Positions 2,017-16,714 of a stretch of DNA of 64,000 nt are shown in pieces. Source of the DNA: Bdellovibrionota bacterium (GTDB lineage: Bacteria; Bdellovibrionota_C; UBA2361; JBIKWN01); NCBI GenBank assembly GCA_044356295.1, contig JBIKWN010000003.1, positions 1-64,000 of the forward strand. The letters are read 5' to 3'. Below the pieces are notes generated by a model. The model saw only the letters and a program-made list of their open reading frames with translations, was not told the DNA's origin and made no database searches. Position 1 is the first letter of the stretch, and each line of letters begins with the position of its first letter. The position numbers and the translations under genes are program-made.

Positions 2017-3199
2017 AACCCAACCTTTTTCCCTCTTTGACCCTTCGCCCGAGCACTACTCGCTTCGAGAAACAATAAAAAACTTTGTAACCGCAGAGGT
2101 CGAACCGCAGGCACTCGAGTTTAATAGAAAAGAGATTTTCAATACTGCACTATTTAGAAAACTTGGCGATCTTGGTTTGCTTGGAATAACCGCATCAGAC
2201 GAGCACGGAGGATCTGGATTTGATGCAACAGCATGTGTTATTGCACACGAAGAATTATCAGCAAGCGATCCTGCATTTTGCCTCTCCTTTCTTGCTCACA
2301 GCATGCTTTGCGTAAACAACATTGCAGTCAATGCAAATGAAGAGCAGAAAAAAATGTACCTTCCAAAACTTTCTTCTGGAGAATGGATCGGAGCAATGGG
2401 TATGTCTGAGACTGAAGCTGGTACCGATGTTCTTTCAATGAGGACAACTGCAACACTTCAAAATGATCACTACATCCTTAATGGTCGCAAAATGTGGATA
2501 ACCAACGGCTGTATCGATGAAGGTAAAACGTTAGGTGATGTCTTTGTTCTGTATGCAAGAACAAATCCGGTATCAGAAGCGAAAGCAAAAATCTCTACCT
2601 TTATTTTAACAAAAGACTTACCAGGCTTTAGCGTTGGGCAAAAAATCCGAGATAAACTTGGTATGCGTGCTTCAAATACAGCTGAGCTTGTTCTTGATAA
2701 TGTAGCTGTCCCTCGAACCCATTTAATTGGGGAAGAGGGAGGAAGCATAAAACATATGATGCGAAACCTCGAAATTGAGCGCGTTACACTTGCTGCTATG
2801 AGCTTAGGTATTGCAAGACGTTGCATCGAAGTCATGACCGAATATGCCAAAACAAGAAAAGCATTTGGTAAAAAAATTGCTGAATTTGGACAGATTCAAC
2901 AGATGATTGCAGATAGCTTTGCTGAGTATCAAGCTGCAAGGTCGTATGTGTATTACACAGCCGCAAATCTCAATCTTAACAAAGAAGGCAGCCGTCTTGA
3001 TTCTGACGGTGTAAAACTATTTGCAACTCCGATGGCAAAACGTGTCGCCGATAGAGCTATCCAGGTGCTTGGAGGTAATGGCTATATAGGAGAGTATGTT
3101 GTTGAAAGATTATGGCGTGATGCTAAACTTTTAGAGATCGGTGGTGGCACCATTGAAGCTCATCAAAAAAATATCTTAATGGATCTTATTAAACAGTAA
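2009..3199 (+). CDS. Acyl-CoA dehydrogenase, isovaleryl-CoA dehydrogenase-like
   Basis: GAMGMSE..AGTD, LNGRKMWITNG, KLGMRAS, R.AFG..I..F, QVLGGNGY, WRDAKLLEIGGGT; start 2009 overlaps upstream stop. Confidence 0.9.
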   Translation: MNKTQPFSLFDPSPEHYSLRETIKNFVTAEVEPQALEFNRKEIFNTALFRKLGDLGLLGITASDEHGGSGFDATACVIAHEELSASDPAFCLSFLAHSMLCVNNIAVNANEEQKKMYLPKLSSGEWIGAMGMSETEAGTDVLSMRTTATLQNDHYILNGRKMWITNGCIDEGKTLGDVFVLYARTNPVSEAKAKISTFILTKDLPGFSVGQKIRDKLGMRASNTAELVLDNVAVPRTHLIGEEGGSIKHMMRNLEIERVTLAAMSLGIARRCIEVMTEYAKTRKAFGKKIAEFGQIQQMIADSFAEYQAARSYVYYTAANLNLNKEGSRLDSDGVKLFATPMAKRVADRAIQVLGGNGYIGEYVVERLWRDAKLLEIGGGTIEAHQKNILMDLIKQ

Positions 3200-3211
3200 G
3201 TAGATTTTAAA

Positions 3212-3646
3212 ATGATTCAATTAGCTTCTTTTCCAATTGACCACATTGGTATTGCAGTAGAAAACCTTGATGCTGCAATCTCTCATCACAAAAATTTATA
3301 TGGCACTGTCTTGGTTGAGCGAGAGACTCTTATCGACAGAGGCATTGAATTAGCTTTTCTTGCAACATCAAATACTCGACTAGAATTCATCGCGCCAATT
3401 ACATTAGATGACGATCAAAATACTATTGTTAAATTTCTAAAGAAGCGAGGATCTGGACTTCACCATATCTGTTATGAAGTTCCACGTATTGAAATTGAAT
3501 TGGAACGTCTTGAAAAAAGTGGGGCGACGTTAATCGATAAAACCCCTAGAAAAGGAGCGTGTAGTTCTCGAATTGCTTTTATTATGCCTTCAAAAGTTGA
3601 CGGCTTGCTTATAGAGCTCTGCGATTACCCTAGTAAATTCAAATAG
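3212..3646 (+). CDS. mce: Methylmalonyl-CoA epimerase (VOC family)
   Basis: IDHIGIAV, FLKKRGSGLHHICYEV, GLLIEL. Confidence 0.85.
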   Translation: MIQLASFPIDHIGIAVENLDAAISHHKNLYGTVLVERETLIDRGIELAFLATSNTRLEFIAPITLDDDQNTIVKFLKKRGSGLHHICYEVPRIEIELERLEKSGATLIDKTPRKGACSSRIAFIMPSKVDGLLIELCDYPSKFK

Positions 3647-3774
3647 TTACACTCTTTTCGTTTAGAAACATGCTTAAACTTCATGTTTCATTCCACTTTT
3701 ATATAAAATATTTTTTGTTATTGGGTCTTAATACCCTATAATTAGTCCCTTAATCGAACAGAAGGCTTTTTTTA

Positions 3775-4341
3775 GTGCTTAACAAGATACTTCCAGCTTC
3801 GTTATTATTAACGCCATTTTCAGCTTATAACGCTGACCAAAATACTGCTGCACATTTTTTTCAAACTAGACCTTCAATAATCTCTAGGGAAACTGTTCAA
3901 AGAATTAGAGCTACACTCGCAGCAGAATTAAGACCTAAGAAAATTACTCTCTCTTTTACAAATAAAGAACGGGAAGCACTCATTGCCCCTGCAATTGAAG
4001 AGAAATTTGAATTAATGAAACTACCTGTAAACCTTAAGGTGTATCCTCAAGACACAGTGTATGCGCGCTTTGCACGTAACCAGAATGTTTTTCTTATTTC
4101 GGATAAGGACACTCCCTTTACGATTCCTGCCGGAAGTTTTGTCCTCATTAACGAGCAATCTATTAAATTACCTAGAGAAACATCTGTCCTTGGAGATAGA
4201 ATTATAATGAATGGGAAAGTTGTAAGGTTTGATGAAGCTCCTGGAATCGCGCCAGCTGGCTCTGTTTATTTGATGGAACATGCTAAAAGAAAGTCTTCGG
4301 CACAAGACACTAATAATATTCAAATTAGCATCGCTGCCTAA
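3775..4341 (+). CDS. Hypothetical protein
   Basis: 188-aa ORF filling the gap, GTG start, no motif recognised. Confidence 0.55.
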   Translation: MLNKILPASLLLTPFSAYNADQNTAAHFFQTRPSIISRETVQRIRATLAAELRPKKITLSFTNKEREALIAPAIEEKFELMKLPVNLKVYPQDTVYARFARNQNVFLISDKDTPFTIPAGSFVLINEQSIKLPRETSVLGDRIIMNGKVVRFDEAPGIAPAGSVYLMEHAKRKSSAQDTNNIQISIAA

Positions 4342-4871
4342 ATAAGCCCATTAAGCCTCGCTCTAAAAAAAAGAGCTGCTGACTTTGAATCTTTTAATTC
4401 ACCTTTTTTAATGAAGTTCTCAATAGCTAAAACTGAATAAGGCTCTACTTCGATCTGCTCATCTTCGTCTGCCGGCAGCCGACTTTCATATAAATTTTTT
4501 GCTACAAAAAAATGTTGCACTTCGGAGCAAAAGCCAGGAACAGGAAATGCTGTTCCAAGTGGTATCATTTCATGAGCAGCAAAACCTGTTTCTTCTTGGA
4601 GTTCTCGCTCTGCGCTCTTTAAGGGATCTTCGCCGATATTTAAAGCACCGGCGGGTAACTCAAGTAGATATTCACCAATTGAATGCCTATATTGGCGAAC
4701 AAATAACACCTGCCCATCTTGAGTAATCGGTAAAACTACAACAGCTCCTGGATGTTTTATGGTCATATGAGTAGCTTTTAGACCATTAGAGAGCGCCAAC
4801 TCCTCTTCCATTGCTGTTAGATATTTAAACGAATATGCAGATTTTGAGGCAATAAGCCTAGGTTTTGACAT
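4338..4871 (-). CDS. NUDIX hydrolase, ADP-ribose pyrophosphatase (NudF)-like
   Basis: HPGAV, RQYR, Nudix box ELPAG......SAERELQEETG, DEDEQI. Confidence 0.9.
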   Translation of the reverse strand: MSKPRLIASKSAYSFKYLTAMEEELALSNGLKATHMTIKHPGAVVVLPITQDGQVLFVRQYRHSIGEYLLELPAGALNIGEDPLKSAERELQEETGFAAHEMIPLGTAFPVPGFCSEVQHFFVAKNLYESRLPADEDEQIEVEPYSVLAIENFIKKGELKDSKSAALFFRARLNGLI

Positions 4872-4917: not shown

Positions 4918-7524
4918 ATGTTTGGCTACATTGCAAAGAAGATTTTCGGCACCCGTAACGACCGCGTTATCCGCGGAATTAACCCCCTTATCGAACGTAT
5001 CAATGAAATCGAAGCTGAATACGAAAAACTAAGCGATGAAGCTTTAAAAAATAAAACTGTTGAATTTCGTGAACGTCTTGCAAAAGGTGAAACGTTAGAG
5101 GACCTTAAAGCTGAAAGCTTCGCAGCTGTTCGAGAAGCATCAAAAAGAGTTCTTGGAATGCGACACTTTGATGTTCAAATCGTTGGTGGCTCTATCCTTG
5201 ACTCAGGCAGAATTGCAGAGATGAAAACAGGTGAAGGTAAAACTTTAACCGCAACACTTCCAGTGTATCTTAATGCTCTACCTGGAAAAGGTGTTCATGT
5301 CGTCACTGTGAATGACTATCTAGCAAAACGAGACTCTGAATGGATGGGGCAAGTTTATAATGCTCTTGGCATGACTGTTGGTTGTATTTACTCAGGGCTC
5401 CCTGAAGCTAAAAAGAAAGAAGCTTATAACTGCGATATTACATACGGTCAAAATAACGAATTTGGTTTTGATTATTTACGAGACAACATGAAGTTTTCTC
5501 GCGATGGGCAATTTCAGCGTGGTCATTTCTTTGCAATCGTGGATGAAGTGGATTCAATCCTTATTGATGAAGCAAGAACTCCTCTTATTATTTCTGGACC
5601 TGCAGAAGATGCGACCGATAAATACTATGCAATTAATAAAATCATACCTTTCTTAATCAAAGATAAAGATTTTGAAATTGAGTTAAAATCCAAAAATCCT
5701 GCACTTACAGAAGTTGGAGTTGCGCGGTGTGAAGAATTACTAAAAATTGAAAACCTCTACGATCCAAAAAATATTGAATTACTCCATCATGTAAACCAAG
5801 CTTTAAAAGCTCATCATACTATGATGAGAGATGCTGAATACGTCGTCAAAGATGGTCAAGTAATTATCGTTGATGAATTCACTGGAAGGCTTATGGCTGG
5901 ACGCAGATGGTCAGATGGACTTCATCAAGCAGTTGAAGCAAAAGAAGGTTTAAAAATCGCTCGAGAAAACCAAACGCTCGCTTCAATTACATTTCAAAAC
6001 TATTTCAGAATGTATGAAAAACTCGCAGGTATGACTGGAACAGCTGATACTGAAGCTGTTGAGTTTAAACAGATATATAATCTCGAAGTCATTGTGATTC
6101 CTCCAAATAGAATCAATGTAAGAGATGATCAAAGCGATGTGGTATATCGAACCAGAAAAGAAAAATATGATGCTGTTGTTTTGGACATTGCAGAGATTCA
6201 TAAATCAGGACAACCGATTCTTGTTGGTACTATCAATATCGATCAGAGCGAAGCTGTTTCTAGAGAATTATCGAAACTAAATATCAAACACTCTGTCCTT
6301 AATGCTAAGCATCACGAAAAAGAAGCAGAAATTGTTGCTCAAGCAGGCAGATTTGCAGCCGTTACAATTTCAACGAATATGGCAGGTCGAGGAACTGACA
6401 TTCTTTTAGGAGGAAATCCAGAATTTCTTGCTTCTGCTGAAAGTAAAACAAAAGATAAAGATAACGCAAAATATCTTGAATCCGTAGAAAAATATAAACA
6501 GATCTGCTCAGATGAAAAAGAGAAAGTCATTGAAGCAGGCGGACTTTTTATTATGGGTACAGAGCGTCATGAATCACGACGAATTGACAATCAGCTCAGA
6601 GGTCGTTCAGGTCGCCAAGGTGATCCAGGAACGACTAGGTTCTACATATCGCTTGAAGATGACCTTATGAAACGATTCGGTGGAGAACGGATTCAAGCAA
6701 TCATGAGCCGCATTGGATGGGAAGAAGGTGTAGCAATTGATGGCAACATGATCAGCCGCTCTATCGAGACAGCTCAAAAACGAGTGGAAGCATACCACTT
6801 TGAATCACGAAAACACGTTACAGAATACGATGATGTAATGAACAAACAGCGCCAAGTAATTTACAACCTACGAAATAAAGTACTGAGTAACGACGGAATC
6901 AAAGACGAAGTTCGTAATATGATTCAGGATCAGATCGAGCAGATCGTTATTGCTGTCTGTGATGAAAAATCAAAGCCAATGGAATGGAATCTTGATCTTT
7001 TAATGCAACGATTCGAATTCCTATTCAATCGCCCTTTCTCATTCCCTACCGACATGCAACTTACCCGCGAAGCTATTGCTGAGCAGATGTCACAAGAAGC
7101 TTTAGCTGCTTATGATGAAAAACAAGCGGAAGTTCGTAACAAATTAGAAGCGCTTGCAAATGCTGCAGCATCAGCTGGTGCTACGCAAAATGGTGATCCG
7201 TTAACATTTGAGGTTTTTCAACAACATACAATACTTGAAACAGTCGATCATTTTTGGCTTACCCATCTTCAAGATATGGATCATCTTCGTGAAGGTATTG
7301 GTCTTCGTGGATACGGGCAAAAAAACCCACTCTATGAATACCAACGTGATGGCTTTACCCATTTTCAAACTATGCTTGAAAGTATGAGTGAAGCTGTAAT
7401 TAGAAAATTATTCTTTATTGAAGTAGCGAGCCCTGAAGAAGTAAGAGCGCAACTTGAAGAAGAAAAGAAACGTCGTCTAAAGCAAGAACAAGCAATGAAG
7501 ACTTCTCATCCAGATGCGCAGTAA
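4918..7524 (+). CDS. secA: Preprotein translocase ATPase SecA
   Basis: MKTGEGKT, DEVDSILIDEARTPLIISG, TNMAGRGTDI, HESRRIDNQLRGRSGRQGD. Confidence 0.99.
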   Translation: MFGYIAKKIFGTRNDRVIRGINPLIERINEIEAEYEKLSDEALKNKTVEFRERLAKGETLEDLKAESFAAVREASKRVLGMRHFDVQIVGGSILDSGRIAEMKTGEGKTLTATLPVYLNALPGKGVHVVTVNDYLAKRDSEWMGQVYNALGMTVGCIYSGLPEAKKKEAYNCDITYGQNNEFGFDYLRDNMKFSRDGQFQRGHFFAIVDEVDSILIDEARTPLIISGPAEDATDKYYAINKIIPFLIKDKDFEIELKSKNPALTEVGVARCEELLKIENLYDPKNIELLHHVNQALKAHHTMMRDAEYVVKDGQVIIVDEFTGRLMAGRRWSDGLHQAVEAKEGLKIARENQTLASITFQNYFRMYEKLAGMTGTADTEAVEFKQIYNLEVIVIPPNRINVRDDQSDVVYRTRKEKYDAVVLDIAEIHKSGQPILVGTINIDQSEAVSRELSKLNIKHSVLNAKHHEKEAEIVAQAGRFAAVTISTNMAGRGTDILLGGNPEFLASAESKTKDKDNAKYLESVEKYKQICSDEKEKVIEAGGLFIMGTERHESRRIDNQLRGRSGRQGDPGTTRFYISLEDDLMKRFGGERIQAIMSRIGWEEGVAIDGNMISRSIETAQKRVEAYHFESRKHVTEYDDVMNKQRQVIYNLRNKVLSNDGIKDEVRNMIQDQIEQIVIAVCDEKSKPMEWNLDLLMQRFEFLFNRPFSFPTDMQLTREAIAEQMSQEALAAYDEKQAEVRNKLEALANAAASAGATQNGDPLTFEVFQQHTILETVDHFWLTHLQDMDHLREGIGLRGYGQKNPLYEYQRDGFTHFQTMLESMSEAVIRKLFFIEVASPEEVRAQLEEEKKRRLKQEQAMKTSHPDAQ

Positions 7525-7533
7525 GAGCATGGT

Positions 7534-8703
7534 GTGAGTAAGCCATTTTCAATATACATTCATATTCCTTTTTGTATTCAAAAATGTCCTTACTGTGACT
7601 TTAATACCTATGCTGTATCGAAAGCACCCGAGAAAGAATATGTCTCAGGTCTTTTGGCTGAACTAGATTTCCGAGCAAGCCTGCCTGAATGGAAAGGTAG
7701 AACCGTACAAACTATTTTTTTTGGCGGAGGTACTCCTAGTATCTTCTCTGGCAAAGCCATTAAAAATATTCTGTCTCATATTACAAGACTCTTTCCAATG
7801 CTTGACTATGTAGAAGTAAGCCTTGAAGCAAATCCTGGAACAGTTGCAACTGATAATCTATCTGAGTTTTACGACGCTGGAGTTAACCGATTAAGCTTTG
7901 GAGCTCAATCATTTAATACTGCAACGTTAAAAACACTCGGACGGACTCACTCACCCGATCAGATTATTGCTGCTGTTGAGTCCTCAAGAGCATCCCTCTT
8001 TTCTAATATTAGTATCGATTTGATTTTCGCAGTCCCTGGACAAACAATCCATGATGTTAGATTTGACTGTGAGCAAGCGCTCCTACTTGACGTTCCTCAT
8101 GTTTCCACTTATTCACTGACTATTGAGAAAGGAACCCCTTTTTACCAAAGTTATAAGCGAGGCATATTTAAGCCAATAAGTGATGACCTCTCACTCGAGA
8201 TGATGGATACGATTCAAGAAATTCTTTTTCAAAGGGGTCAAGGACTTGAACGGTACGAAATCAGCAACTACGCAAAACCAGGAAAAGAAGCACGCCATAA
8301 TATGGCTTATTGGAACGGGGATGATTACTTAGGAGTCGGCGCAGGAGCTCACAGCTTCTGTAAAGACAGGCGCTGGTCTAACATTGCACTTCCACAAAGC
8401 TACGTTGAAAAAGCGACATCTCAGGGAACCGCTGAATCATGGGAAGAAAAACTAACCGTCAGGGATCAGATATTTGAGTACTTTTTCCTTGGATTAAGAA
8501 AAATTCATGGGGTCAGTATGTCTGAATTTGAACGTCGATTTCAGACTAAGTGGGACCCGCTTTTTGGTGATCTGATTGATATTTTATCTACTGAAAAACT
8601 GATTATCCAAGATGCTGACTGCATTAGATTAAGCCAGCGAGGTCTAGAAATTGCTGATTCAGTTATTGAGAATTTTTCAAAGCTAGATCTTTCTGCTCTT
8701 TAA
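7534..8703 (+). CDS. hemW: Radical SAM family heme chaperone HemW
   Basis: YIHIPFCIQKCPYCDFN, GGGTPS, EANP, YEISNYA, HNMAYW. Confidence 0.93.
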   Translation: MSKPFSIYIHIPFCIQKCPYCDFNTYAVSKAPEKEYVSGLLAELDFRASLPEWKGRTVQTIFFGGGTPSIFSGKAIKNILSHITRLFPMLDYVEVSLEANPGTVATDNLSEFYDAGVNRLSFGAQSFNTATLKTLGRTHSPDQIIAAVESSRASLFSNISIDLIFAVPGQTIHDVRFDCEQALLLDVPHVSTYSLTIEKGTPFYQSYKRGIFKPISDDLSLEMMDTIQEILFQRGQGLERYEISNYAKPGKEARHNMAYWNGDDYLGVGAGAHSFCKDRRWSNIALPQSYVEKATSQGTAESWEEKLTVRDQIFEYFFLGLRKIHGVSMSEFERRFQTKWDPLFGDLIDILSTEKLIIQDADCIRLSQRGLEIADSVIENFSKLDLSAL

Positions 8704-8766
8704 AACAAAAAAACTTTGATTGCTCTTAAAGCGTACTTTCAGTTATAAAGATAAAAGATTTCTTTT

Positions 8767-10146
8767 ATGACTATTCCAGAAAAACTAACTATTAATTCGT
8801 CTCTCACAGACAGTGGTATTACCCTTGCAATCGGTAATAATTCATTTCCAATTACTTACGATAAAGATGTCTGGCAGAAAACTTCTCAGTCTCTAAAAGA
8901 GCAGCTTCTGTCCAATCTACCAATGGCGTCGACTCTCTATCTTCCACAGATTCTTGGAAAAAGAGAAATTCACTATAATACCGCACGCCCTATTGGTGAG
9001 AGTTTTTTCTTGAGGAATGGCATTTATGATGCTCCATACTGTGCGAATGTTGATGGCAAATCCTCAACTCAGTACCTAAAAGATTTTTTTAATACTCGCT
9101 ACCTTTTTGCCAAAGACGATATTAAGACTCCTGCCTCTGTCCAATTTGAACAACAAAAAAAAGAAAAACCACGCGCTCTCGTTCTTTTTTCTTTCGGTAA
9201 AGAGAGCCTACTAAGCTTTGCTCTTTGCAGAGAGCTTGGTATTGAACCAATTCTTGTAACAATTATTCATCCAGGGTTTGCTTACGAGTGGCTTCATAAA
9301 AAACCTCTCGTTGAAAAATTTGAAAAAGAATTTGGTGTCACGGTCCATACTGTTGATTATCAACCCGGACTGCTGAAAGAAGGAAAATACTTTGGCCTTT
9401 CAACAGAGCTTGGATGGGGGCTTCATGTTACTGAATACGCTCTTCTTGCCCTACCCTATGCTGAAGTATTTAACTGCGATTTTGTAGTTTGTGGTAATGA
9501 GCAATCTTGTAATGATATTTACTTCGATAAAGAAGATGTTCTTATATACCGTGCAGGTCTTGACCAGCATCATGATTGGACTAAGTCTCAGGGACTTCTG
9601 CAAAGCCTTTTGATGGGGCGAGCTCTTGGTGCATATAGCCTTCTTGAGCCCCTCTATGAAATCTCTGAAACAAAAATTCTTCACACTCGATATCCTGAAG
9701 TCGGCAAGTATCAGATGTCATGTTTTGCCTCCTCTGAAGGATCAAAAGACAGAAGGTGGTGCCAAGAGTGTGATAAATGTGCCTATATGTACGCTCTTCT
9801 TAGAGGTTTTAATATTGATCCGAAAGCACTTGGCTTTACCGATAACTTATTCGATGAGAAGCATAAACATCTCTATGATACGTTCTTCTCTCGAACAGAT
9901 GATACGCACTTCTATGGATCACAGGGCGAGTTAGGTCTTGGCTTTTTTGCATCACTCCAATATGGGACAGATGACTACTCTTTAAAACGATTTACGAAAG
10001 AACTCCTTCCTAAATTTAAAGATAATTTTTCAGAGATACGTGAGAAATATTTGGGTATTCATCCTACGTTTCAATATCCTCCTGAATATATCGATAGACT
10101 GAATACACTTTTTTCTGACGAGTTATCACTTTGTCTAAAGAATTAG
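8767..10146 (+). CDS. MurL-like PP-loop ATP-dependent protein (putative peptide epimerase/adenylating enzyme)
   Basis: SFGKES (PP-loop), GNEQS, HDWTKS, YSLLEP, MSC, RRWCQECDKC, co-linear with motifs I recall from MurL (UDP-MurNAc-L-Ala-L-Glu epimerase). Confidence 0.6.
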   Translation: MTIPEKLTINSSLTDSGITLAIGNNSFPITYDKDVWQKTSQSLKEQLLSNLPMASTLYLPQILGKREIHYNTARPIGESFFLRNGIYDAPYCANVDGKSSTQYLKDFFNTRYLFAKDDIKTPASVQFEQQKKEKPRALVLFSFGKESLLSFALCRELGIEPILVTIIHPGFAYEWLHKKPLVEKFEKEFGVTVHTVDYQPGLLKEGKYFGLSTELGWGLHVTEYALLALPYAEVFNCDFVVCGNEQSCNDIYFDKEDVLIYRAGLDQHHDWTKSQGLLQSLLMGRALGAYSLLEPLYEISETKILHTRYPEVGKYQMSCFASSEGSKDRRWCQECDKCAYMYALLRGFNIDPKALGFTDNLFDEKHKHLYDTFFSRTDDTHFYGSQGELGLGFFASLQYGTDDYSLKRFTKELLPKFKDNFSEIREKYLGIHPTFQYPPEYIDRLNTLFSDELSLCLKN

Positions 10147-11222
10147 GCCTTTTTCCTCCTTCTTGGTTATCCCTTTTTTCATCGGGATTACTGACCTGGG
10201 ATAATAATAAAGATCAACAGAGCGTACATCATGAAGTCTTTGTTTCGTTTGAAGACGCTCTGTGGTGTTTTCTTAAAGCAGCACCTATCGATAAAAAAAC
10301 TTTTCTTGTTCCCGATTTTTTCTGTACTGATGTTACCAGCAGACTTATTGAACAGGGGTTTTCGGTTGTGTGGTATGCATTAAATGAAGATTTATCATTT
10401 AATCAGGATACCTTTAAAAATTTTATTTCTGATGATGTCGGTGGTGTCTTCATCTACTATCCAATGGGATGCCGAGATACCACACCTAAACCAGAATGGT
10501 TTAGGTCTATCCTTGGACCTAACGTACTCATCATTGAAGATTGTGCTGATTGCGTCGTCCTGTCAGATCAAATTTGTCTGATTGATTCGAAACATATCCT
10601 TATAGACAGCCTTAGAAAAATTCTCCCTCTCCAAGGGGCAAGACTTTTTTTTGATTCAAAAATCAACCTTCCGAATAGTTCCTCTGGTTTATTCTACTTT
10701 CTCAAAACACATCTGCTCCATATTTCATATCTCATCCTCCACAGTATTACGGAAGTAACGGCGTATCGTTGGTTATTGAATATAAAGTGGAATATTTTTG
10801 TGTGGCACTCTAATAGTATAGGAAGTCACTTTGAAGGCGTACGTGGGTCGCCTCTATTCGAATACTTTCTGTCAAAAATCAACTTACGATCATTGAAAAC
10901 GAAAAGAGGCACTCTTGTTAAGAGATATTATCAAAACTTATCCCCTACTATCTCTTCTTCAAATATAAAACTTTTGCCTCAGGAACCAAAAGAAGAGGGC
11001 GAAATTAGATTTCCAATTTTATGTGGCAATAAAAACACTCTCTCAATTCTTGCTGACAAACTTGAACAGTTTGAAATATATGTTGACCTTCATTTTGATG
11101 ATTCACCACGAGCCCAAATGGCTGATTACTTACTGCTCCCTCTCACTCCTTGTATGAATATAGAAGATATCGATAAAATATCTTCATCAATATTAAAAAT
11201 TTTAAATAACAAATATCAATGA
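10131..11222 (+). CDS. Divergent DegT/DnrJ/EryC1-like PLP-dependent protein
   Basis: LVPDFFC..V, YYPMG, IIEDCA, DSLRKILP (Schiff-base Lys), C-terminal LLLPL; start uncertain (TTG). Confidence 0.65.
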   Translation: MSKELGLFPPSWLSLFSSGLLTWDNNKDQQSVHHEVFVSFEDALWCFLKAAPIDKKTFLVPDFFCTDVTSRLIEQGFSVVWYALNEDLSFNQDTFKNFISDDVGGVFIYYPMGCRDTTPKPEWFRSILGPNVLIIEDCADCVVLSDQICLIDSKHILIDSLRKILPLQGARLFFDSKINLPNSSSGLFYFLKTHLLHISYLILHSITEVTAYRWLLNIKWNIFVWHSNSIGSHFEGVRGSPLFEYFLSKINLRSLKTKRGTLVKRYYQNLSPTISSSNIKLLPQEPKEEGEIRFPILCGNKNTLSILADKLEQFEIYVDLHFDDSPRAQMADYLLLPLTPCMNIEDIDKISSSILKILNNKYQ

Positions 11223-12445
11223 CACGTATCGCTTGCTTGGGACATACAATCGATCCCCTTTTTCTGAGTAAAAAAGTTAGGTCGTCTCTCATTGTTTTCA
11301 TCCCAAAATCTGATAAACGATATAAAAAATACTACAAAGATTTTAAGACAATTGAGTTTGATTTTAAGTGTAAGGACGCGATCGAAGAGACTTCTGATTT
11401 TGATGTCATGAGCTCAGGGGGATTCAAAAAAGCTCTTCAACTCACTGAAATTACTCATTTTCTAGTAAGTCATCGCTCTACCAAAGAGCTCTTCAGTTTG
11501 TTAATAAAGCTCAAAATAACTCCTCTAGGCAATCACTATGGGTGGGCTACTCGTTTCGAAAATAAAGATTACTTCGATCGACTACTCAAGACTTTTTCAC
11601 TACCTAAACCGAAAACACTTTCTAACGCTATGCTGAGCACTCATAAGGCAAAGGTAGTTCTTCAAGAAGTAAATTCTTTTGGAAGTTTTGGTACCAAAAT
11701 AGTTACTGCAAAAGAAGCGCTTACAATCAATCACAAGATCAAAAACAAGCGCTCCTTGCTAACACGAGAATTTGTTGATGGAAGCGTCTACGGAATAACG
11801 CTTCTTATTAAAGGTAAATCATTTGCGCTCTCTGCACTTCGTCAGCAGTGTTACTTTGATGAATCTCTACTCTTTGCAGGGGTTCAGTGGATAACATCCA
11901 AAAGTATTCCTAAAAAGGTTCGCAATTCGATTCAAAAGTCTTTTAAAATTATTGCTCAACACTGTATTAAAAATAACATTGAAGGTATTTTAAATTTTGA
12001 TTTTATAATCTCAAAAAATCAAAAGCTCTCTATTCTTGAATGCAATCCTCGCCCCTCGAGCGCGACACCCCATCTTCTATCACATAAAGAGCTAATCCAC
12101 GGTATTGATCTCTCTGAATTTATGACCATGCAGAACTTTAAGTTCAAAACCAATGAAAAAGTTCCGAATCATCATTTCCAAGGAGCTTTATTAGATATCA
12201 TGGTCCCACGAAATCTGTCAGGTATCGAAACAAAACGTTCCTTAAAAAAACTCCTTGTTTCACAAAATAAAATCAAACAAAAAAAACTGTTTGTACACCT
12301 CGTACTAAAGCCATCGTTTAAAGAAGGTGATTTCCTAGGTTTGATTCTGTCCGAGAAAAGGCTATTCTCAAGTTCTGGTACACTTCTAGAATCGACAAAA
12401 TTACTGTATGAAACCATCACCGGTATCTCTCTTCGAAAAACTTGA
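11219..12445 (+). CDS. ATP-grasp domain protein
   Basis: FENK, SFGSFGT, REFVDG, GILNFDFI, ILECNPR; ATGA overlap. Confidence 0.75.
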   Translation: MTRIACLGHTIDPLFLSKKVRSSLIVFIPKSDKRYKKYYKDFKTIEFDFKCKDAIEETSDFDVMSSGGFKKALQLTEITHFLVSHRSTKELFSLLIKLKITPLGNHYGWATRFENKDYFDRLLKTFSLPKPKTLSNAMLSTHKAKVVLQEVNSFGSFGTKIVTAKEALTINHKIKNKRSLLTREFVDGSVYGITLLIKGKSFALSALRQQCYFDESLLFAGVQWITSKSIPKKVRNSIQKSFKIIAQHCIKNNIEGILNFDFIISKNQKLSILECNPRPSSATPHLLSHKELIHGIDLSEFMTMQNFKFKTNEKVPNHHFQGALLDIMVPRNLSGIETKRSLKKLLVSQNKIKQKKLFVHLVLKPSFKEGDFLGLILSEKRLFSSSGTLLESTKLLYETITGISLRKT

Positions 12446-13772
12446 AAAAGCAATTGCTCACTTCAAAACGTTAGCTCCGTGGCTGAGACAACAACTTACT
12501 AACAGTCAGTATTCGACTCTCCCACTGACTCATATAGTTGACGAGATCCTCTCTAAAAAATCACAGATCGAAGCTGTTATTGAAACAAACTCAACTCCTT
12601 GCTACCTACTCGACCTCAATAATCTTAACCGTAGTATCAACAGATATAAAAAGGCTTTCAGCTCGTCCTTACCAGAGATGAAGCATTTCTATGCCGTAAA
12701 ACTTAATCATGAGCCGACTCTTTTAAAAACAATTTTCTCTCAAGGATTTGGTGCTGATGTTTCGAGTGCAAGAGAACTGTATCTTGCAAAAGAGGCTGGA
12801 GCAGCTTCTTTTCTCTTTTCAGGGCCTGGCAAAACAACAGAAGAACTTCAATCGGCTATAGAGTTTGGCAGTGACGTTATCATTAATGTCGATAATTTTT
12901 GCGAGCTAGAAAGAATTAAAAAAATTATCATAAAACCATTATCGATTGGTGTGAGAATTACCTTTAGTGAACACGGAGCTTGGGATAAGTTCGGAATCGC
13001 GTTATCAGAACTTTCAAAGTTTTATAACGAAGTAAAAAAGTCTGAATTAATTACCCTTATTGGAATTCAGTTCCATATTAGCTGGAATCAAGACAGCTCA
13101 AAGTATGTTTCAGCTATTAAAAAACTGAGTGAAGTTCTAAAGGATGAACCTCACAAAGACTTGTGCCAAGAACTCAAATTTATTGATATCGGAGGGGGAT
13201 TTAGACCTTTCCAAAGTGAAGGTTTTTTTCCAGAAGATACTCCAGAAGGCTCAATTATCTCTTCTATTCAATCGTTATTGGGCGAGCAAGGCTCTACCTC
13301 AGACCTCGATCTACCTCATGCACTTCTCACAGAAGCTGTCCCAATTGAAGAATATGCAGAAGCGATTTCCTCTGCGATTAAAAGTCATATCGAGCCACTC
13401 GGTACATTTCAATATTACTCTGAGCCAGGCCGAATTATCGTAAATGATGCTATGCATGTAGCCGTCTCAGTCGTTGATGTGAAAAACCAGCAGTGTGTCA
13501 TTACAGATGGTGGTACCAACATCGTAGGTTTTGAGCGATTTGAATTTGATTATTTTCCTGTCATTAACCTCACGCATCCTTCTCTTACGGAAAGAGATAC
13601 GACTGTCTATGGGTCTTTATGCATGCCGCAAGATTATTGGGGAAAGAGAGCATTTAGTGGTGATTTTTCTGAAAACGATATCATCATAATTCCCTATCAA
13701 GGCGCCCTCACCTATTCAAATATGAATGATTTCATTAAGGGCAAAGCCCCTGTCATACTGTTAGAATCATAA
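12408..13772 (+). CDS. Fold-III PLP decarboxylase (diaminopimelate/ornithine decarboxylase family)
   Basis: FYAVK, DVSSARE, SGPGK, KFG, GIQFH, DIGGGF, EPGR, GSLCMPQD, GALT. Confidence 0.88.
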   Translation: MKPSPVSLFEKLEKAIAHFKTLAPWLRQQLTNSQYSTLPLTHIVDEILSKKSQIEAVIETNSTPCYLLDLNNLNRSINRYKKAFSSSLPEMKHFYAVKLNHEPTLLKTIFSQGFGADVSSARELYLAKEAGAASFLFSGPGKTTEELQSAIEFGSDVIINVDNFCELERIKKIIIKPLSIGVRITFSEHGAWDKFGIALSELSKFYNEVKKSELITLIGIQFHISWNQDSSKYVSAIKKLSEVLKDEPHKDLCQELKFIDIGGGFRPFQSEGFFPEDTPEGSIISSIQSLLGEQGSTSDLDLPHALLTEAVPIEEYAEAISSAIKSHIEPLGTFQYYSEPGRIIVNDAMHVAVSVVDVKNQQCVITDGGTNIVGFERFEFDYFPVINLTHPSLTERDTTVYGSLCMPQDYWGKRAFSGDFSENDIIIIPYQGALTYSNMNDFIKGKAPVILLES

Positions 13773-14815
13773 TGAATACGGTCATTGAAAAATATTCCCT
13801 TGAACGTATTCCCCTAGAGCTTCGTGAAACTTATACGATTGCTTATCAAACAGTCTCAAAGGTAGAAAATATTTTTTTTACCATTCACCTATCTGATCGA
13901 TTCCAAGCCAAGGGAGTTTCGGCACCAGAACCTGAAGTAACCGGTGAAACAATCGATTCAACGTACCAACTTTTGCAAACGATAATCGACAATGAATTAC
14001 TACTTTGCAAAACTCCTCAAGCCTTTTTAAAGATCCTTCCAGAATTATTAGAAAAATATTCGGCATATCCAGCTATGCTTGCAAGTTTAGATTTTGCAGC
14101 ACTCTCTCTACGAGCTCATCAAAATGACAGCTCTATTAGCTCTTTTAGAAAATGTGTTGGCAAAAAAATTCCTACAACTATCACTATAAATATTCACACA
14201 CCACAAGAAACCTTAGAGAGAGCCATAAAATGGCGCGAGCAAGGTTTTATTATGTTCAAAATCAAAGGAGGTCTTGCGATTGAAGAAGACCTTTCAAAGT
14301 TATCTCTGCTTCGAAATAAACTTGGAATGTCTCGTCCAATTCTTTTTGATGCGAATCAAGGTTATAGCGAAGCAGAAGCGCGGTATTTCTTAAAGGAATC
14401 TAAAAAATTTGAACTCTTAGCGATCGAACAACCTGTAGCAAAGGAAGATAATGAGCTTCTTTTATCGTTAGCAGGAGAAAAATCAACTCCAATTATGGCT
14501 GATGAATCAGCTTGCTCCCTGAAAGATATACGGTACCTCGCACAAAAAGGAATACAGTATTTCAACATTAAGCTTATGAAGTGTGGTGGTACAGAGGCTG
14601 GATTAGCTCTGGCAAGAGAAGTCGTAAATAATGATCGAAAACTAATTTTTAGCTGTATGGATGAGTGTGCCCTTAGTAATGCGTACTCACTTGTTACGGC
14701 TCTTTCAATTCCACAAGTAACATGGGTCGATCTTGATAGTTTTACTGACTACACATCAGATCCAACTAGAAATGTTATTACAGTTGAAAAAGGATTTCTC
14801 AGTACTAAAATTTAA
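13772..14815 (+). CDS. Dipeptide (L-Ala-D/L-Glu) epimerase, enolase superfamily
   Basis: [48 protein letters not shown] overlap. Confidence 0.88.
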
Positions 14816-15084
14816 GGTAGCAGGCTAATCCAAGTAAAGTCTTTATCTGTAACTCCTCCGGCATCGTGAGTAGATAATTTTAATGTAACTTTATTGTATA
14901 CATTAAATATTTCAGCGTGATGGTCGAGCTTTTCGGATACCAGTGCAACAGAAGTTAAAAACGAGAAAGCCTGTTTAAAATCTTTAAAAACAAAATCACA
15001 GATTAACTGATTATCTTCAAATCTCCATCCTTGAAATTGTTTAATCTTATCAAGAATTATTTCTGCTGTAAGTTTTTTAATCAT
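14812..15084 (-). CDS. Pterin-4-alpha-carbinolamine dehydratase
   Basis: [39 protein letters not shown] 15084 overlaps the MFS stop. Confidence 0.92.
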
Positions 15085-16279
15085 CTTCTGTAAAGGAAAG
15101 GTTTCGACCAAAGGTTTCTTCAACTGCAAATAATGCAATAGAGCTACAAATAACAGCAAACAGTGTTGCACATAACGCTGAATTCCACGGATCTAAAAAA
15201 ATCTTTCCTTCTGCAAAAAGAAAAACAAAAAGAGCAGCAGAACCACGTATAACATTAGGAACTGATGTTGTGACCGTTGCACGAATATTGGTGCCAAATG
15301 ATTCTGCAGCAATAGAGAGTATCAATGCCCAATTTGCAGTGATAAATCCTAAAATTCCAGCAAAAAGATAGTAATCAAATGACGACTGAGGGGGAGAAAA
15401 AAATCCAAAACATACAACTAAAAATGTCCCAATAATTGAAAGTAATGCCGATTTTTTTCTGCTTCTAAAATATTGACTCAATCCACCGAAGAGAAAATCA
15501 CCAAGTGATATACCGATATAACAAAATATTACCCCTTGGGCCGCTGTAAGTGGTGAAGCAATCATAAGGCCTTTACCAATTTCAGGCGCAAACGTAGCAA
15601 TCAGGTAGATAGCACAAACAATTGGAAATCCAAGAACGACGCAAGAAATATATTTAATAAATCGACTCTTTGTCGAAAATAGAATGAAAAGGTTTCCTTT
15701 TTTAAGATCCTTTCTTTCTTTTATTGCCGTAAAGGCTTCTCCCTCTCCAACTTTTACTCGGGCAAATAAAAGTAAAAAACCAAGCACTGCACCAATTAAG
15801 TAACAATCGCGCCAAGGTATATATTCAGCAAGAATTCCGGCAACTACTGCACCAAATAATCCTACTGCCGTGATTATCGTTGTTCCCCAGCCCCGCTTTT
15901 CAGCTGGCATAAGTTCACTCACTAACGTGATACCTGCCCCTAATTCACCAGCAAGTCCAAAACCAGCAATACCGCGGTACCAAGCATACATCTCTGGACC
16001 CTGCACAAATACACAAGCAAGATTTGCAATGGAATATAATAAAATTGATCCATACAAAACTGAGAGTCGTCCAACCTTATCGGCCCAGATTCCCCAAATA
16101 ACACCACCGATAAGCAATCCAATTAATTGAAAATTTAAAATTCTGACACCAGCAGAAAATGCTTCAGCTTCAGTTAATCCAAGCGAAGTTAAACTTGGCA
16201 TCCTAAGGATACTAAAAAGAAGTATATCAAAGACATCTACGAAATAACCTAATGCTGCGACAAGTATGGCAGCATTCAT
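15077..16279 (-). CDS. MFS transporter
   Basis: About 12 TM segments, GIWADKVGR motif [20 protein letters not shown]. Confidence 0.92.
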
Positions 16280-16285
16280 TTGAGG

Positions 16286-16714
16286 TTACCGTACTTCAAA
16301 AAAATCAATTGGATCTTGATCCTCTGGATCACCATTATAATTGGTTACTATCTCTTCATCGATTGCAATATCTTTAACTGCATAAAAATCTACAACACCT
16401 TTTTCGAAACGGCGCTCAAATAAAGCATTCGGGGTATATGAATGGTTATAAATTGATCCATACCCAAGAGCTACAGCAATCCCTTCATCATCAGGCGTCC
16501 ATGCGTAGTAATAATTGTAGAGTCTCGTTTTATCAATCAATTGATTTTGTTCAAGCGGAACAATAATAACAGGTGCTCTTTCAATCAACTCACCTTTTTT
16601 GATATCACGAGAGGCAAAAACGCCACGACCTTTTTCACCTGCTTCTGCAACATAGACAGGACCAATAAATGAAAGATCTGATTTTGTTTCGGGGAGGGGC
16701 ATTACTGCATTCAT
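16286..16714 (-). CDS. SET domain protein
   Basis: KGRGVFA..DIKKGE, SIYNHSYTPN, AVKDI..DEEIVTNY. Confidence 0.92.
   Translation of the reverse strand: MNAVMPLPETKSDLSFIGPVYVAEAGEKGRGVFASRDIKKGELIERAPVIIVPLEQNQLIDKTRLYNYYYAWTPDDEGIAVALGYGSIYNHSYTPNALFERRFEKGVVDFYAVKDIAIDEEIVTNYNGDPEDQDPIDFFEVR

Follow-up and report, generated by a model that had tools for sequence, protein, structure and literature searches.

Gene organization of the locus

We analyzed a stretch of 64,000 nt (positions 1-64,000 of contig JBIKWN010000003.1, assembly GCA_044356295.1, from a Bdellovibrionota bacterium of UBA2361; JBIKWN01), here called the window, and within it an operon of five genes, O1 to O5, which most likely constitutes one arm of a pathway of about 11 genes that is independent of the ribosome and of nonribosomal peptide synthetases (NRPS). 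Exactly five plus-strand open reading frames (ORFs) occupy positions 8767-14815 in the ORF listing (Table 1), and each of them overlaps the next: O1 and O2 by 16 nt, O2 and O3 by 4 nt (ATGA at 11219-11222), O3 and O4 by 38 nt, and O4 and O5 by a single nucleotide (TAATG, with the ATG of O5 at 13772). An initial annotation of this DNA had described five co-directional, overlapping ORFs lying between hemW and a convergent gene for pterin-4a-carbinolamine dehydratase (PCD), with ATGA and TAATG at these same two junctions; the ORF coordinates, the junctions and the bridging contigs described below all agree with that description. The stop codons of O5 and PCD overlap by 4 nt, and PCD is followed on the minus strand by genes for a major facilitator superfamily (MFS) transporter, a SET-domain methyltransferase and PilT.

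Because each of the five ORFs has strong homologues, we regard them as genes rather than chance frames. Two observations favor the TTG start of O2: conservation among its homologues sets in at residue 6 (ELGLFPP), and a start at the next in-frame codon, the GTG at 10368, would cost the protein its invariant residues S39 and D42. Contigs from run X2, which represents another sample and another study, showed zero differences from the assembly in all 30 bins of the locus and bridged four of the six junctions (O2/O3, O3/O4, O4/O5 and O5/PCD); the remaining two, hemW/O1 and O1/O2, were bridged by run X4. In addition, low-depth contigs from runs X2 and X4 reach into both 9148-9165 and 14885-14909, the two parts being separated by four other letters. 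The matching sides of these contigs are very short, and they probably come from another organism, the alternative being a variant that lacks most of the operon. In a signal scan, promoter-like sites were fewer than expected (17 vs 24.8) and terminator-like sites more numerous (10 vs 6.1), and none lay at a notable gene boundary.

Table 1. Genes of the operon and of its immediate surroundings (window coordinates)
Gene	Position	Strand	Product and features
O1	8767-10146	+	459 aa, ATG start; PP-loop ATPase with QueC-type Cys4 motif, MurL-paralogous family
O2	10131-11222	+	363 aa, TTG start; DegT/WecE-fold pyridoxal phosphate (PLP) enzyme, aminotransferase type
O3	11219-12445	+	408 aa; ATP-grasp amide ligase
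O4	12408-13772	+	454 aa; predicted fold-III PLP decarboxylase, FslC/LysA-like
O5	13772-14815	+	347 aa; predicted enolase-superfamily dipeptide epimerase
HemW	7534-8703		upstream of O1; TIGR00539, 331 bits vs cut-off 205
SecA	4918-7524		upstream of HemW
PCD	14812-15171	-	pterin-4a-carbinolamine dehydratase, convergent with O5
MFS	15077-16279	-	MFS transporter; Pfam MFS_1, 80.9 bits
SET	16286-16714	-	SET-domain methyltransferase; Pfam SET, 54.2 bits

There is an overlap of 95 nt between the PCD ORF and the MFS gene, and with the Pfam match of PCD starting at residue 33, its real start is probably later. A secA gene lies within a few kb of an O1-family gene in the window and also in four other loci (L050, L071, L079 and L087); three of these four are closely related to each other, and the proximity may be a coincidence.

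The five enzymes of the operon

O1 matched no Pfam family at E≤0.001. It contains a variant PP-loop, SFGKES, at residues 142-147, and a cysteine motif, C319-x12-C332-x2-C335-x2-C338, in which all four cysteines are invariant among 28 sequences. Against the NCBIfam MurL model it scored 36.5 bits (E 1.9e-9), far below the cut-off of 700, and when the whole genome was scanned with the same model the position of O1 gave 31 bits and no true MurL was found in the genome. To the O1 family we compared eight MurL or MurL-like proteins taken from 400 genomes of another class, of which 10 matched the MurL model at E≤1e-20, three of them above the cut-off, with one genome, G289, left unscored. Alignment by hhalign gave Prob 98.7 and E 2.4e-16 over 288 columns with 24% identity, and three motifs are shared: the PP-loop (SFGKES aligned with GGGKDS), GNEQS/SNERS, and RWCxxCxKC. 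O1 also has the architecture of MurL, namely a PP-loop-type nucleotide-binding motif and a C-terminal CxxCxxC zinc-type motif. The predicted structure of O1 (predicted local distance difference test, pLDDT, 92.7) resembled most closely the PDB folds of QatC (1.1e-6), QueC (1.7e-4) and Cap9, all of the QueC type; by Pfam sequence profile, its match to QueC reached only E 0.18. A PDB sequence search yielded no match for O1, O2 or O3, and MurL was not among the best 150 matches listed in the search of a representative protein library. These sequence and structure comparisons place O1 in a family that is paralogous to MurL and has the QueC-like PP-loop fold.

MurL itself is described as an ATP- and Mg-dependent, AMP-forming, one-way L-to-D epimerase whose reaction begins by adenylating the terminal carboxylate (PMC5808125, PMC8788868). 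By analogy with this enzyme we infer that O1 epimerizes rather than amidates; in Pfam and NCBIfam scans O1 showed no glutaminase and no asparagine-synthetase-type amidotransferase domain.

O2 gave no Pfam match even at E≤1 and so did not reach the gathering score of the DegT family PF01041, for which one of its orthologues, from a member of the candidate phyla radiation (CPR), reached 27.6 bits. Foldseek placed its predicted structure (pLDDT 90.3) closest to two sugar aminotransferases, WecE and ArnB (E about 5e-13, TM about 0.6), a profile of the O2 family matched DegT-family PDB chains at 1e-6 to 1e-3, and its atlas features scored 0.98 to DegT clusters. In DegT aminotransferases the Schiff-base lysine falls about 26 residues after the PLP-binding aspartate. 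D137 (IEDCAD) of O2, which aligns with the EDCAQ motif of the DegT family, and K163 (DSLRK) are invariant in 18 sequences. O2 has, therefore, the fold, the PLP-binding aspartate and the Schiff-base lysine of a fold-type-I sugar aminotransferase. O3 matched Pfam ATP-grasp_3 (PF02655) with 40.4 bits (cut-off 23.2); an atlas search for it returned generic ATP-grasp clusters only. Its weak NCBIfam matches, all far below the cut-offs, were to PylC, MfnD and an archaeal Ddl-like family, and as PylC and MfnD are makers of side-chain amides, these affinities constrain the role that O3 can be given in the model below.

O4 scored 122.8 bits with Orn_Arg_deC_N (PF02784) and 25.7 bits with PF00278, and it contains K98 (YAVK), GGGF at 262-265, EPGR at 339-342 and C405; it passes the Pfam thresholds and has the PLP lysine and the glycine-rich and EPGR motifs of fold-III PLP decarboxylases. 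Among proteins of solved structure its nearest relative is FslC, an N-citrylornithine decarboxylase (7kh2, 2.4e-22), with LysA next, and the corresponding curated models gave 104.4 bits for FslC (cut-off 500) and 140.3 bits for LysA (TIGR01048, cut-off 297.9). On these sequence grounds we assign O4 as a putative fold-III decarboxylase, distinct from the housekeeping LysA. For O5 the best PDB relatives were the characterized dipeptide epimerases 3jva (2.3e-32), 3rit and 2zad. In such enzymes the DxD motif serves to bind the ammonium group of the dipeptide. O5 contains K163 and K165 (FKIKGG), D193, E219, D244, NIKLMKCGG at 265-273 and DLD at 320-322, which align with 3jva and 3rit, and these provide the KxK motif, the three metal carboxylates, the second catalytic lysine and the DxD motif. 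We conclude that O5 is a probable dipeptide epimerase with the full catalytic set. Its scores against the two L-Ala-D/L-Glu epimerase models were 134.8 bits (NF041118, cut-off 500) and 54.5 bits (NF011708, cut-off 343), both below the equivalog cut-off, and we therefore do not assign it Ala-Glu specificity. None of O1, O4 and O5 reached an NCBIfam equivalog cut-off. The five gene identities of the initial annotation stand at the level of superfamily, with "MurL-like" denoting a paralogous family and not MurL.

A second arm of the system

The same genome carries, on another contig (C3), genes for a FemAB-like GNAT (Acetyltransf_6, here GNAT6), a paralogue of O4 with 34% identity that forms a second decarboxylase, a 281-aa GNAT6 paralogue, a 794-aa protein in which an L-amino acid ligase (LAL) is fused to a Ddl-like ligase, and a Nudix protein. 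The 794-aa double ligase, which is present on C3 and absent from the window, has 42% identity to a CPR protein and consists of two ATP-grasp modules and LAL_C2. Its N-terminal half matched BL00235 (3vot, 1.7e-34) and BacD, and its C-terminal half matched Ddl structures, scoring 106 bits against the ddl cut-off of 245.65. When O1 was modeled in complex with this Ddl-like half, both scores were 0.01 (0.01 and 0.01), values that speak neither for nor against a contact. Past the double ligase and Nudix genes, just downstream of them (L089:9455-11470), lies a gene for a 671-aa GspE/PilB-type secretion ATPase with a C-terminal response-regulator receiver.

The relation between the two arms was seen in two genomes of the same genus, G001 and G002. 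In G001, one contig of 5885 nt has the order 281-like protein, double ligase, SET, MFS, and then the convergent genes O5 and O4, and a second contig has the order SecA-HemW-O1-O2. SET lies 74 nt downstream of the double ligase in G001, and the MFS orthologue, with 62% identity, lies between SET and O5. As both arms of the window genome form one supercluster in G001, the SET and MFS genes of the window belong to the system. From this synteny, MFS is a probable exporter of the product and SET a probable tailoring enzyme. G002 has the split two-arm layout seen here and likewise the order PCD-MFS-SET-PilT. The PCD gene, present in G002, is absent from the O5/MFS junction in G001 and is an insertion or a loss inside the supercluster. 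The five genes do not, then, form a self-contained unit: the LAL+Ddl ligase, the second decarboxylase, the two GNATs, SET and MFS all lie outside 8767-14815, and the operon is half of an undescribed set of about 11 enzymes otherwise characteristic of CPR bacteria, which are ultra-small.

The cassette in other genomes

To follow the system beyond the genus we surveyed genome contigs anchored on O1; of 163 candidate stretches, 135 encoded a relative and 80 loci were kept. A homologue of O4 was found in 13 of the 80 loci, of O5 in 13, of O3 in 12 and of O2 in nine, and a Ddl-like or double ATP-grasp ligase in 52. The operon genes do co-occur in other genomes, as the pathway proposed in the initial annotation would require: homologues of all five occur together, in shuffled order, in four loci (L014, L017, L021 and L039), and subsets occur in many more. 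Among candidates from a collection of 5.8 billion proteins there were 112 homologues of O1 and only 12 of O2; the named O1 homologues came mostly from Patescibacteria with a few from Asgard archaea, and 13 of the 112 had a precomputed PF26298 label. Among 1.84 billion representatives, the O1-family profile matched at least 184 clusters (50% identity) at E≤1e-30 and 502 at E≤1e-10.

In loci of the Patescibacteria type, the gene directly upstream of O1 encodes a fusion of about 800 aa between LAL (ATP-grasp_4 + LAL_C2) and a Ddl-like ligase. Three CPR layouts recur: double ligase, O1, O3, O4; double ligase, O1, O5, O2, O3, O4; and double ligase, O1, a FemAB-like GNAT (Acetyltransf_6), a decarboxylase and a protein of about 284 aa. 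The GNAT6 proteins of the window genome had no BLAST match in the CPR loci at 1e-6, their relatives there being detected at the Pfam level only. A SET gene neighbors the cassette in five of the CPR loci, L039, L046 (two copies), L018, L016 and L020. In archaea and some other bacteria, O1 adjoins a stand-alone Ddl-like ligase; at the ORF level such a ligase lay within 6 kb in 48 of the 80 loci, and archaea of the Asgard, Bathyarchaeota and DPANN groups commonly have the pair. One uncultured archaeon encodes an O1-type enzyme and a Ddl-like ligase in a single ORF of 803 aa (L025:7998-10409), a natural fusion that supports the two working together. We conclude that the core of the system across CPR bacteria and archaea is a Ddl-like ATP-grasp ligase paired with an O1-type enzyme, the ligase of the pair being represented in the present genome by the C-terminal half of the double ligase on C3. 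Asgard and spirochaete loci contain, besides this pair, a small GNAT and a fold-II PLP enzyme. In DPANN loci a KamA-family lysine/glutamate 2,3-aminomutase adjoins the Ddl-like ligase (L049:8566-9663) or is fused to it beside O1 (L061:45-2138 and L073:4545-6602), which hints at beta-amino-acid substrates in those lineages. In the open-access full-text literature we found no account of this cassette or pathway, in agreement with the initial annotation, which had recognized the combination from no described pathway.

Several individual loci had features of their own. L021 (Jacksonbacteria) contains two O1 paralogues in one cassette, at 3081-4490 and 7980-9374, which are sisters in the O1 tree. 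In L017 (Peribacteraceae) the O5 homologue at 9403-10422 is split into ORFs of 110 and 91 aa with the rest of the cassette intact, and is probably a frameshifted or decaying dipeptide epimerase. CPR-type cassettes were also found in third-party annotation (TPA) records labeled "uncultured Gammaproteobacteria" (L016, L019, L050, L058, L066, L067, L071, L077, L081, L082, L086 and L087). In the O1 tree these records cluster with Microgenomates, Roizmanbacteria and Gottesmanbacteria, and the double-ligase tree shows the same for L019; their labels look unreliable.

Distribution within the order and origin

Among 41 genomes of the genus and order, O1 was found at E≤1e-50 in four (G000, which is the genome studied here, G001, G002, and a distant copy in G025), the full-length double ligase in three (G000, G001 and G002 only), and SET in five (these three and two of another family). 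The O1 relative of G025, a genome of the same order (L004:1387-2811), has 33% identity, and no ligase was found within the 4 kb fetched around it; its neighbors are two proteins without Pfam families and one collagen-repeat protein.

In a quick, unrooted IQ-TREE phylogeny of O1 (78 rows, with L025, L029, L054, L074 and L085 dropped by a length filter of 380-520 aa), the three proteins of the genus fell inside a 20-row clade (Shimodaira-Hasegawa-like approximate likelihood ratio test, SH-aLRT, 100) whose other members are CPR, two of them being "uncultured Gammaproteobacteria" records that group with CPR. This clade nests in a 26-row group (99), the remaining rows of which are likewise CPR; the exact place of the trio inside the clade is weakly supported (87). 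In an unrooted double-ligase tree of 20 rows, the trio was sister (100) to six Peregrinibacteria/Gracilibacteria/Patescibacteria rows. The economical reading of these sequence relationships is that O1 and the double ligase were exchanged with CPR bacteria, a direction being suggested by distribution only. The G+C content of the operon is 0.376 and that of the genome 0.386 (standard deviation 0.014 in 6-kb windows), which gives no hint of a recent transfer; this, together with the HemW-O1 synteny that G001 shares, indicates that any transfer was old. The host genome is 2.96 Mb and 93.6% complete.

Discussion

The gene families, the intact catalytic motifs of O2, O4 and O5, their co-location, the linkage of the two arms in G001 and the affinity to CPR are the observations on which we build; from them we infer the substrates and the order of the steps. 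The reading that we favor, with somewhat better than an even chance of being right, is that the system is a line of ATP-grasp and MurL-like enzymes whose product is a small peptide that contains a D-residue, is decarboxylated, may be N-methylated and is exported. The initial annotation had proposed, among other products, a small peptide bearing a D-amino acid or capped with an amine, and for these genes that is still the best reading. In the scheme that we propose, the LAL module would join two L-amino acids to a dipeptide, and O5 would epimerize the C-terminal residue of the free dipeptide, its DxD motif implying that the N-terminus of the dipeptide is free. More amide bonds would then be formed by the Ddl-like module and O3, at least one of them probably through a side chain such that an alpha-amino-acid head is left free, after which O1, acting like MurL, would adenylate the terminal alpha-carboxylate and use ATP to drive a one-way L-to-D inversion. 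O4 would next remove the alpha-carboxylate of the free head group to give a primary amine, by the logic of FslC in rhizoferrin synthesis; since a PLP decarboxylase needs a free alpha-amino-acid head, O4 would act either on an amino acid by itself or, as FslC does, on one that is linked by its side chain. O2 may supply or convert an amino/keto building block, SET may methylate an amine, MFS would export the product, and the two FemAB-like GNATs and the second decarboxylase on C3 may add or process one further residue.

Several points weigh against this scheme. O1-O5 and the C3 arm are physically unlinked in this genome. At a BLAST threshold of 1e-6 MFS is not beside the cassette in CPR loci, so that export is supported within the genus only, and the adjacency of SET to the cassette is patchy. 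The nearest folds of O2 act on nucleotide keto-sugars and not on peptides, which the scheme leaves unexplained. The fold of O1 is nearest to amide-forming enzymes of the QueC type (QatC, QueC and Cap9), and O1 may therefore ligate or amidate; moreover, two epimerases within one pathway are unusual. Finally, none of the runs listed as holding this DNA is an RNA run.

The nearest folds of O1, QueC-type enzymes that make an amide from an adenylated carboxylate, also suggest a pathway for a compatible solute or capped dipeptide like that for N-acetylglutaminylglutamine amide (NAGGN), in which an ATP-grasp enzyme would make a dipeptide, O1, in the manner of QueC or AsnO, would adenylate the C-terminal carboxylate and turn it into an amide with ammonia or an amine, the GNATs would cap the N-terminus, and the decarboxylase and SET would yield a neutral or betaine-like end group. 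The Asgard and spirochaete loci with O1, a Ddl-like ligase and a small GNAT parallel Ngg plus AsnO. Beta-amino acids are classic archaeal osmolytes, and the fusion or juxtaposition of the 2,3-aminomutase with the Ddl-like ligase in DPANN loci fits with this. The sequence of O1 is nearer to MurL than to QueC, however, by both the NCBIfam and the hhalign comparisons, and O1 has no glutaminase domain. A strong need for osmolytes is not obvious, as all runs holding this DNA are labeled lake water metagenome or metagenome, and such a pathway has no need of a dipeptide epimerase or an exporter; we consider it improbable. 

A role in peptidoglycan synthesis, whether by racemase-independent supply of D-Glu, of a D-Ala dipeptide or of lysine, or by a non-canonical modification of the stem as the initial annotation had offered for the operon, draws on the fact that MurL, the Ala-Glu epimerases, Ddl and LysA are cell-wall enzymes to which members of the cassette are related. 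FemAB-like GNATs make peptidoglycan cross-bridges, and an LD-carboxypeptidase (L071), a D-Ala-D-Ala carboxypeptidase (L042) and SpoIID (L059) are encoded near relatives of O1. The genome, however, has canonical copies elsewhere of murI (on C119, 231.6 bits, cut-off 146.65), lysA (on C85, 446.9 bits, cut-off 297.9) and ddl (362.1 bits, cut-off 245.65), indicating that the operon is not a housekeeping supply for the cell wall; O4 is not the sole lysA, and replacement of any of the three genes by the operon was rejected. No member of the cassette reaches the cut-off of a curated cell-wall family, the operon has no Mur ligase, the O1/Ddl-like pair is widespread in archaea, and a transporter and a methyltransferase are linked to the cassette; we disfavor a cell-wall role as quite improbable. 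Salvage or catabolism of imported peptides, for example of prey cell-wall peptides, in which the epimerases and decarboxylase would turn D-residue peptides and diamino acids into usable L-amino acids and amines with MFS as the importer, would fit a host in Bdellovibrionota, a phylum of predators, as MFS proteins are able to import and the known physiological role of L-Ala-D/L-Glu epimerases is the recycling of murein peptides. Against it, the set spends ATP on building amide bonds, with no fewer than three ATP-grasp ligase modules and two FemAB-like transferases, and no peptidase belongs to its conserved genes. The cassette is also carried by CPR bacteria and archaea whose lifestyles differ, and we consider salvage very improbable.

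A wider form of the exported-peptide scheme, which we regard as possible but doubtful, is that O1-type enzymes use ATP to epimerize terminal residues and, with Ddl-like ligases, constitute a third general route to D-amino-acid peptides, one without ribosomes or NRPS, through CPR, DPANN and Asgard, and that a freshwater Bdellovibrionota genus captured a complete CPR line, added a transporter, and secretes an N-methylated D-peptide-amine acting on other cells. The exported-peptide scheme itself, if it holds, would define a new route to peptides with D-residues, and with it an unfamiliar class of small metabolites from the least-known microbes. The O1 family spans CPR bacteria and several archaeal phyla, typically near peptide ligases, and its only studied relative, MurL, showed that a terminal peptide residue can be inverted in one direction, from L to D, at the expense of ATP.

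Comparison with known systems

The pairing of a PP-loop plus Cys4 enzyme with a ligase is common to MurL and O1, which align over about 290 columns. MurL works with the L-Glu-adding MurD2 in genomes without glutamate racemase, whereas O1 has HemW and a DegT-like gene as neighbors, and no Mur ligase, in a genome with murI; the partner of O1 is an ATP-grasp ligase (Ddl-like or LAL), there is no UDP-MurNAc context, and the O1 family reaches into archaea. The double ligase resembles both the L-amino acid ligases (BL00235 and BacD/YwfE) and D-Ala-D-Ala ligase by the module matches in its two halves, but here both modules are fused in one 794-aa chain, and the LAL+Ddl fusion always accompanies O1 in CPR loci. 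O5 resembles the dipeptide epimerases of the enolase superfamily (YkfB/YcjG, 3jva, 3rit and 2zad) in its complete catalytic set and DxD motif; in contrast to them, it has about 30% identity or less, scores below every NCBIfam equivalog cut-off, and sits in a biosynthetic-looking operon rather than one for peptide recycling.

In the rhizoferrin pathway, FslA is the ligase, FslC the N-citrylornithine decarboxylase, and MFS proteins the exporters. The Francisella pathway is like the one proposed here in its succession of a ligase, a fold-III decarboxylase whose substrate is an omega-acylated amino acid, and an MFS transporter, and O4 and FslC have a C-terminal CM-x-x-D motif in common. It differs in using an NRPS-independent siderophore (NIS) synthetase, not present here, and in having no counterpart of the epimerases, the DegT-like enzyme or the SET methyltransferase. 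In NAGGN synthesis, Ngg acetylates and ligates and AsnO amidates the dipeptide (PMC8070244). What this route would have in common with the present system is a dipeptide made by a GNAT and an ATP-grasp ligase, the C-terminal carboxylate of which is then altered by an adenylating enzyme. O1, however, is no asparagine-synthetase-type amidotransferase, and the NAGGN route uses no epimerase or decarboxylase. Relative to the CPR copies of the cassette, this locus offers a host with a genome of normal size, a full parts list through synteny with sister species, and a linked transporter, which suggests a secreted product; what is new here is the non-CPR host, the two-arm organization, and the linkage of both a transporter and a methyltransferase to the cassette.

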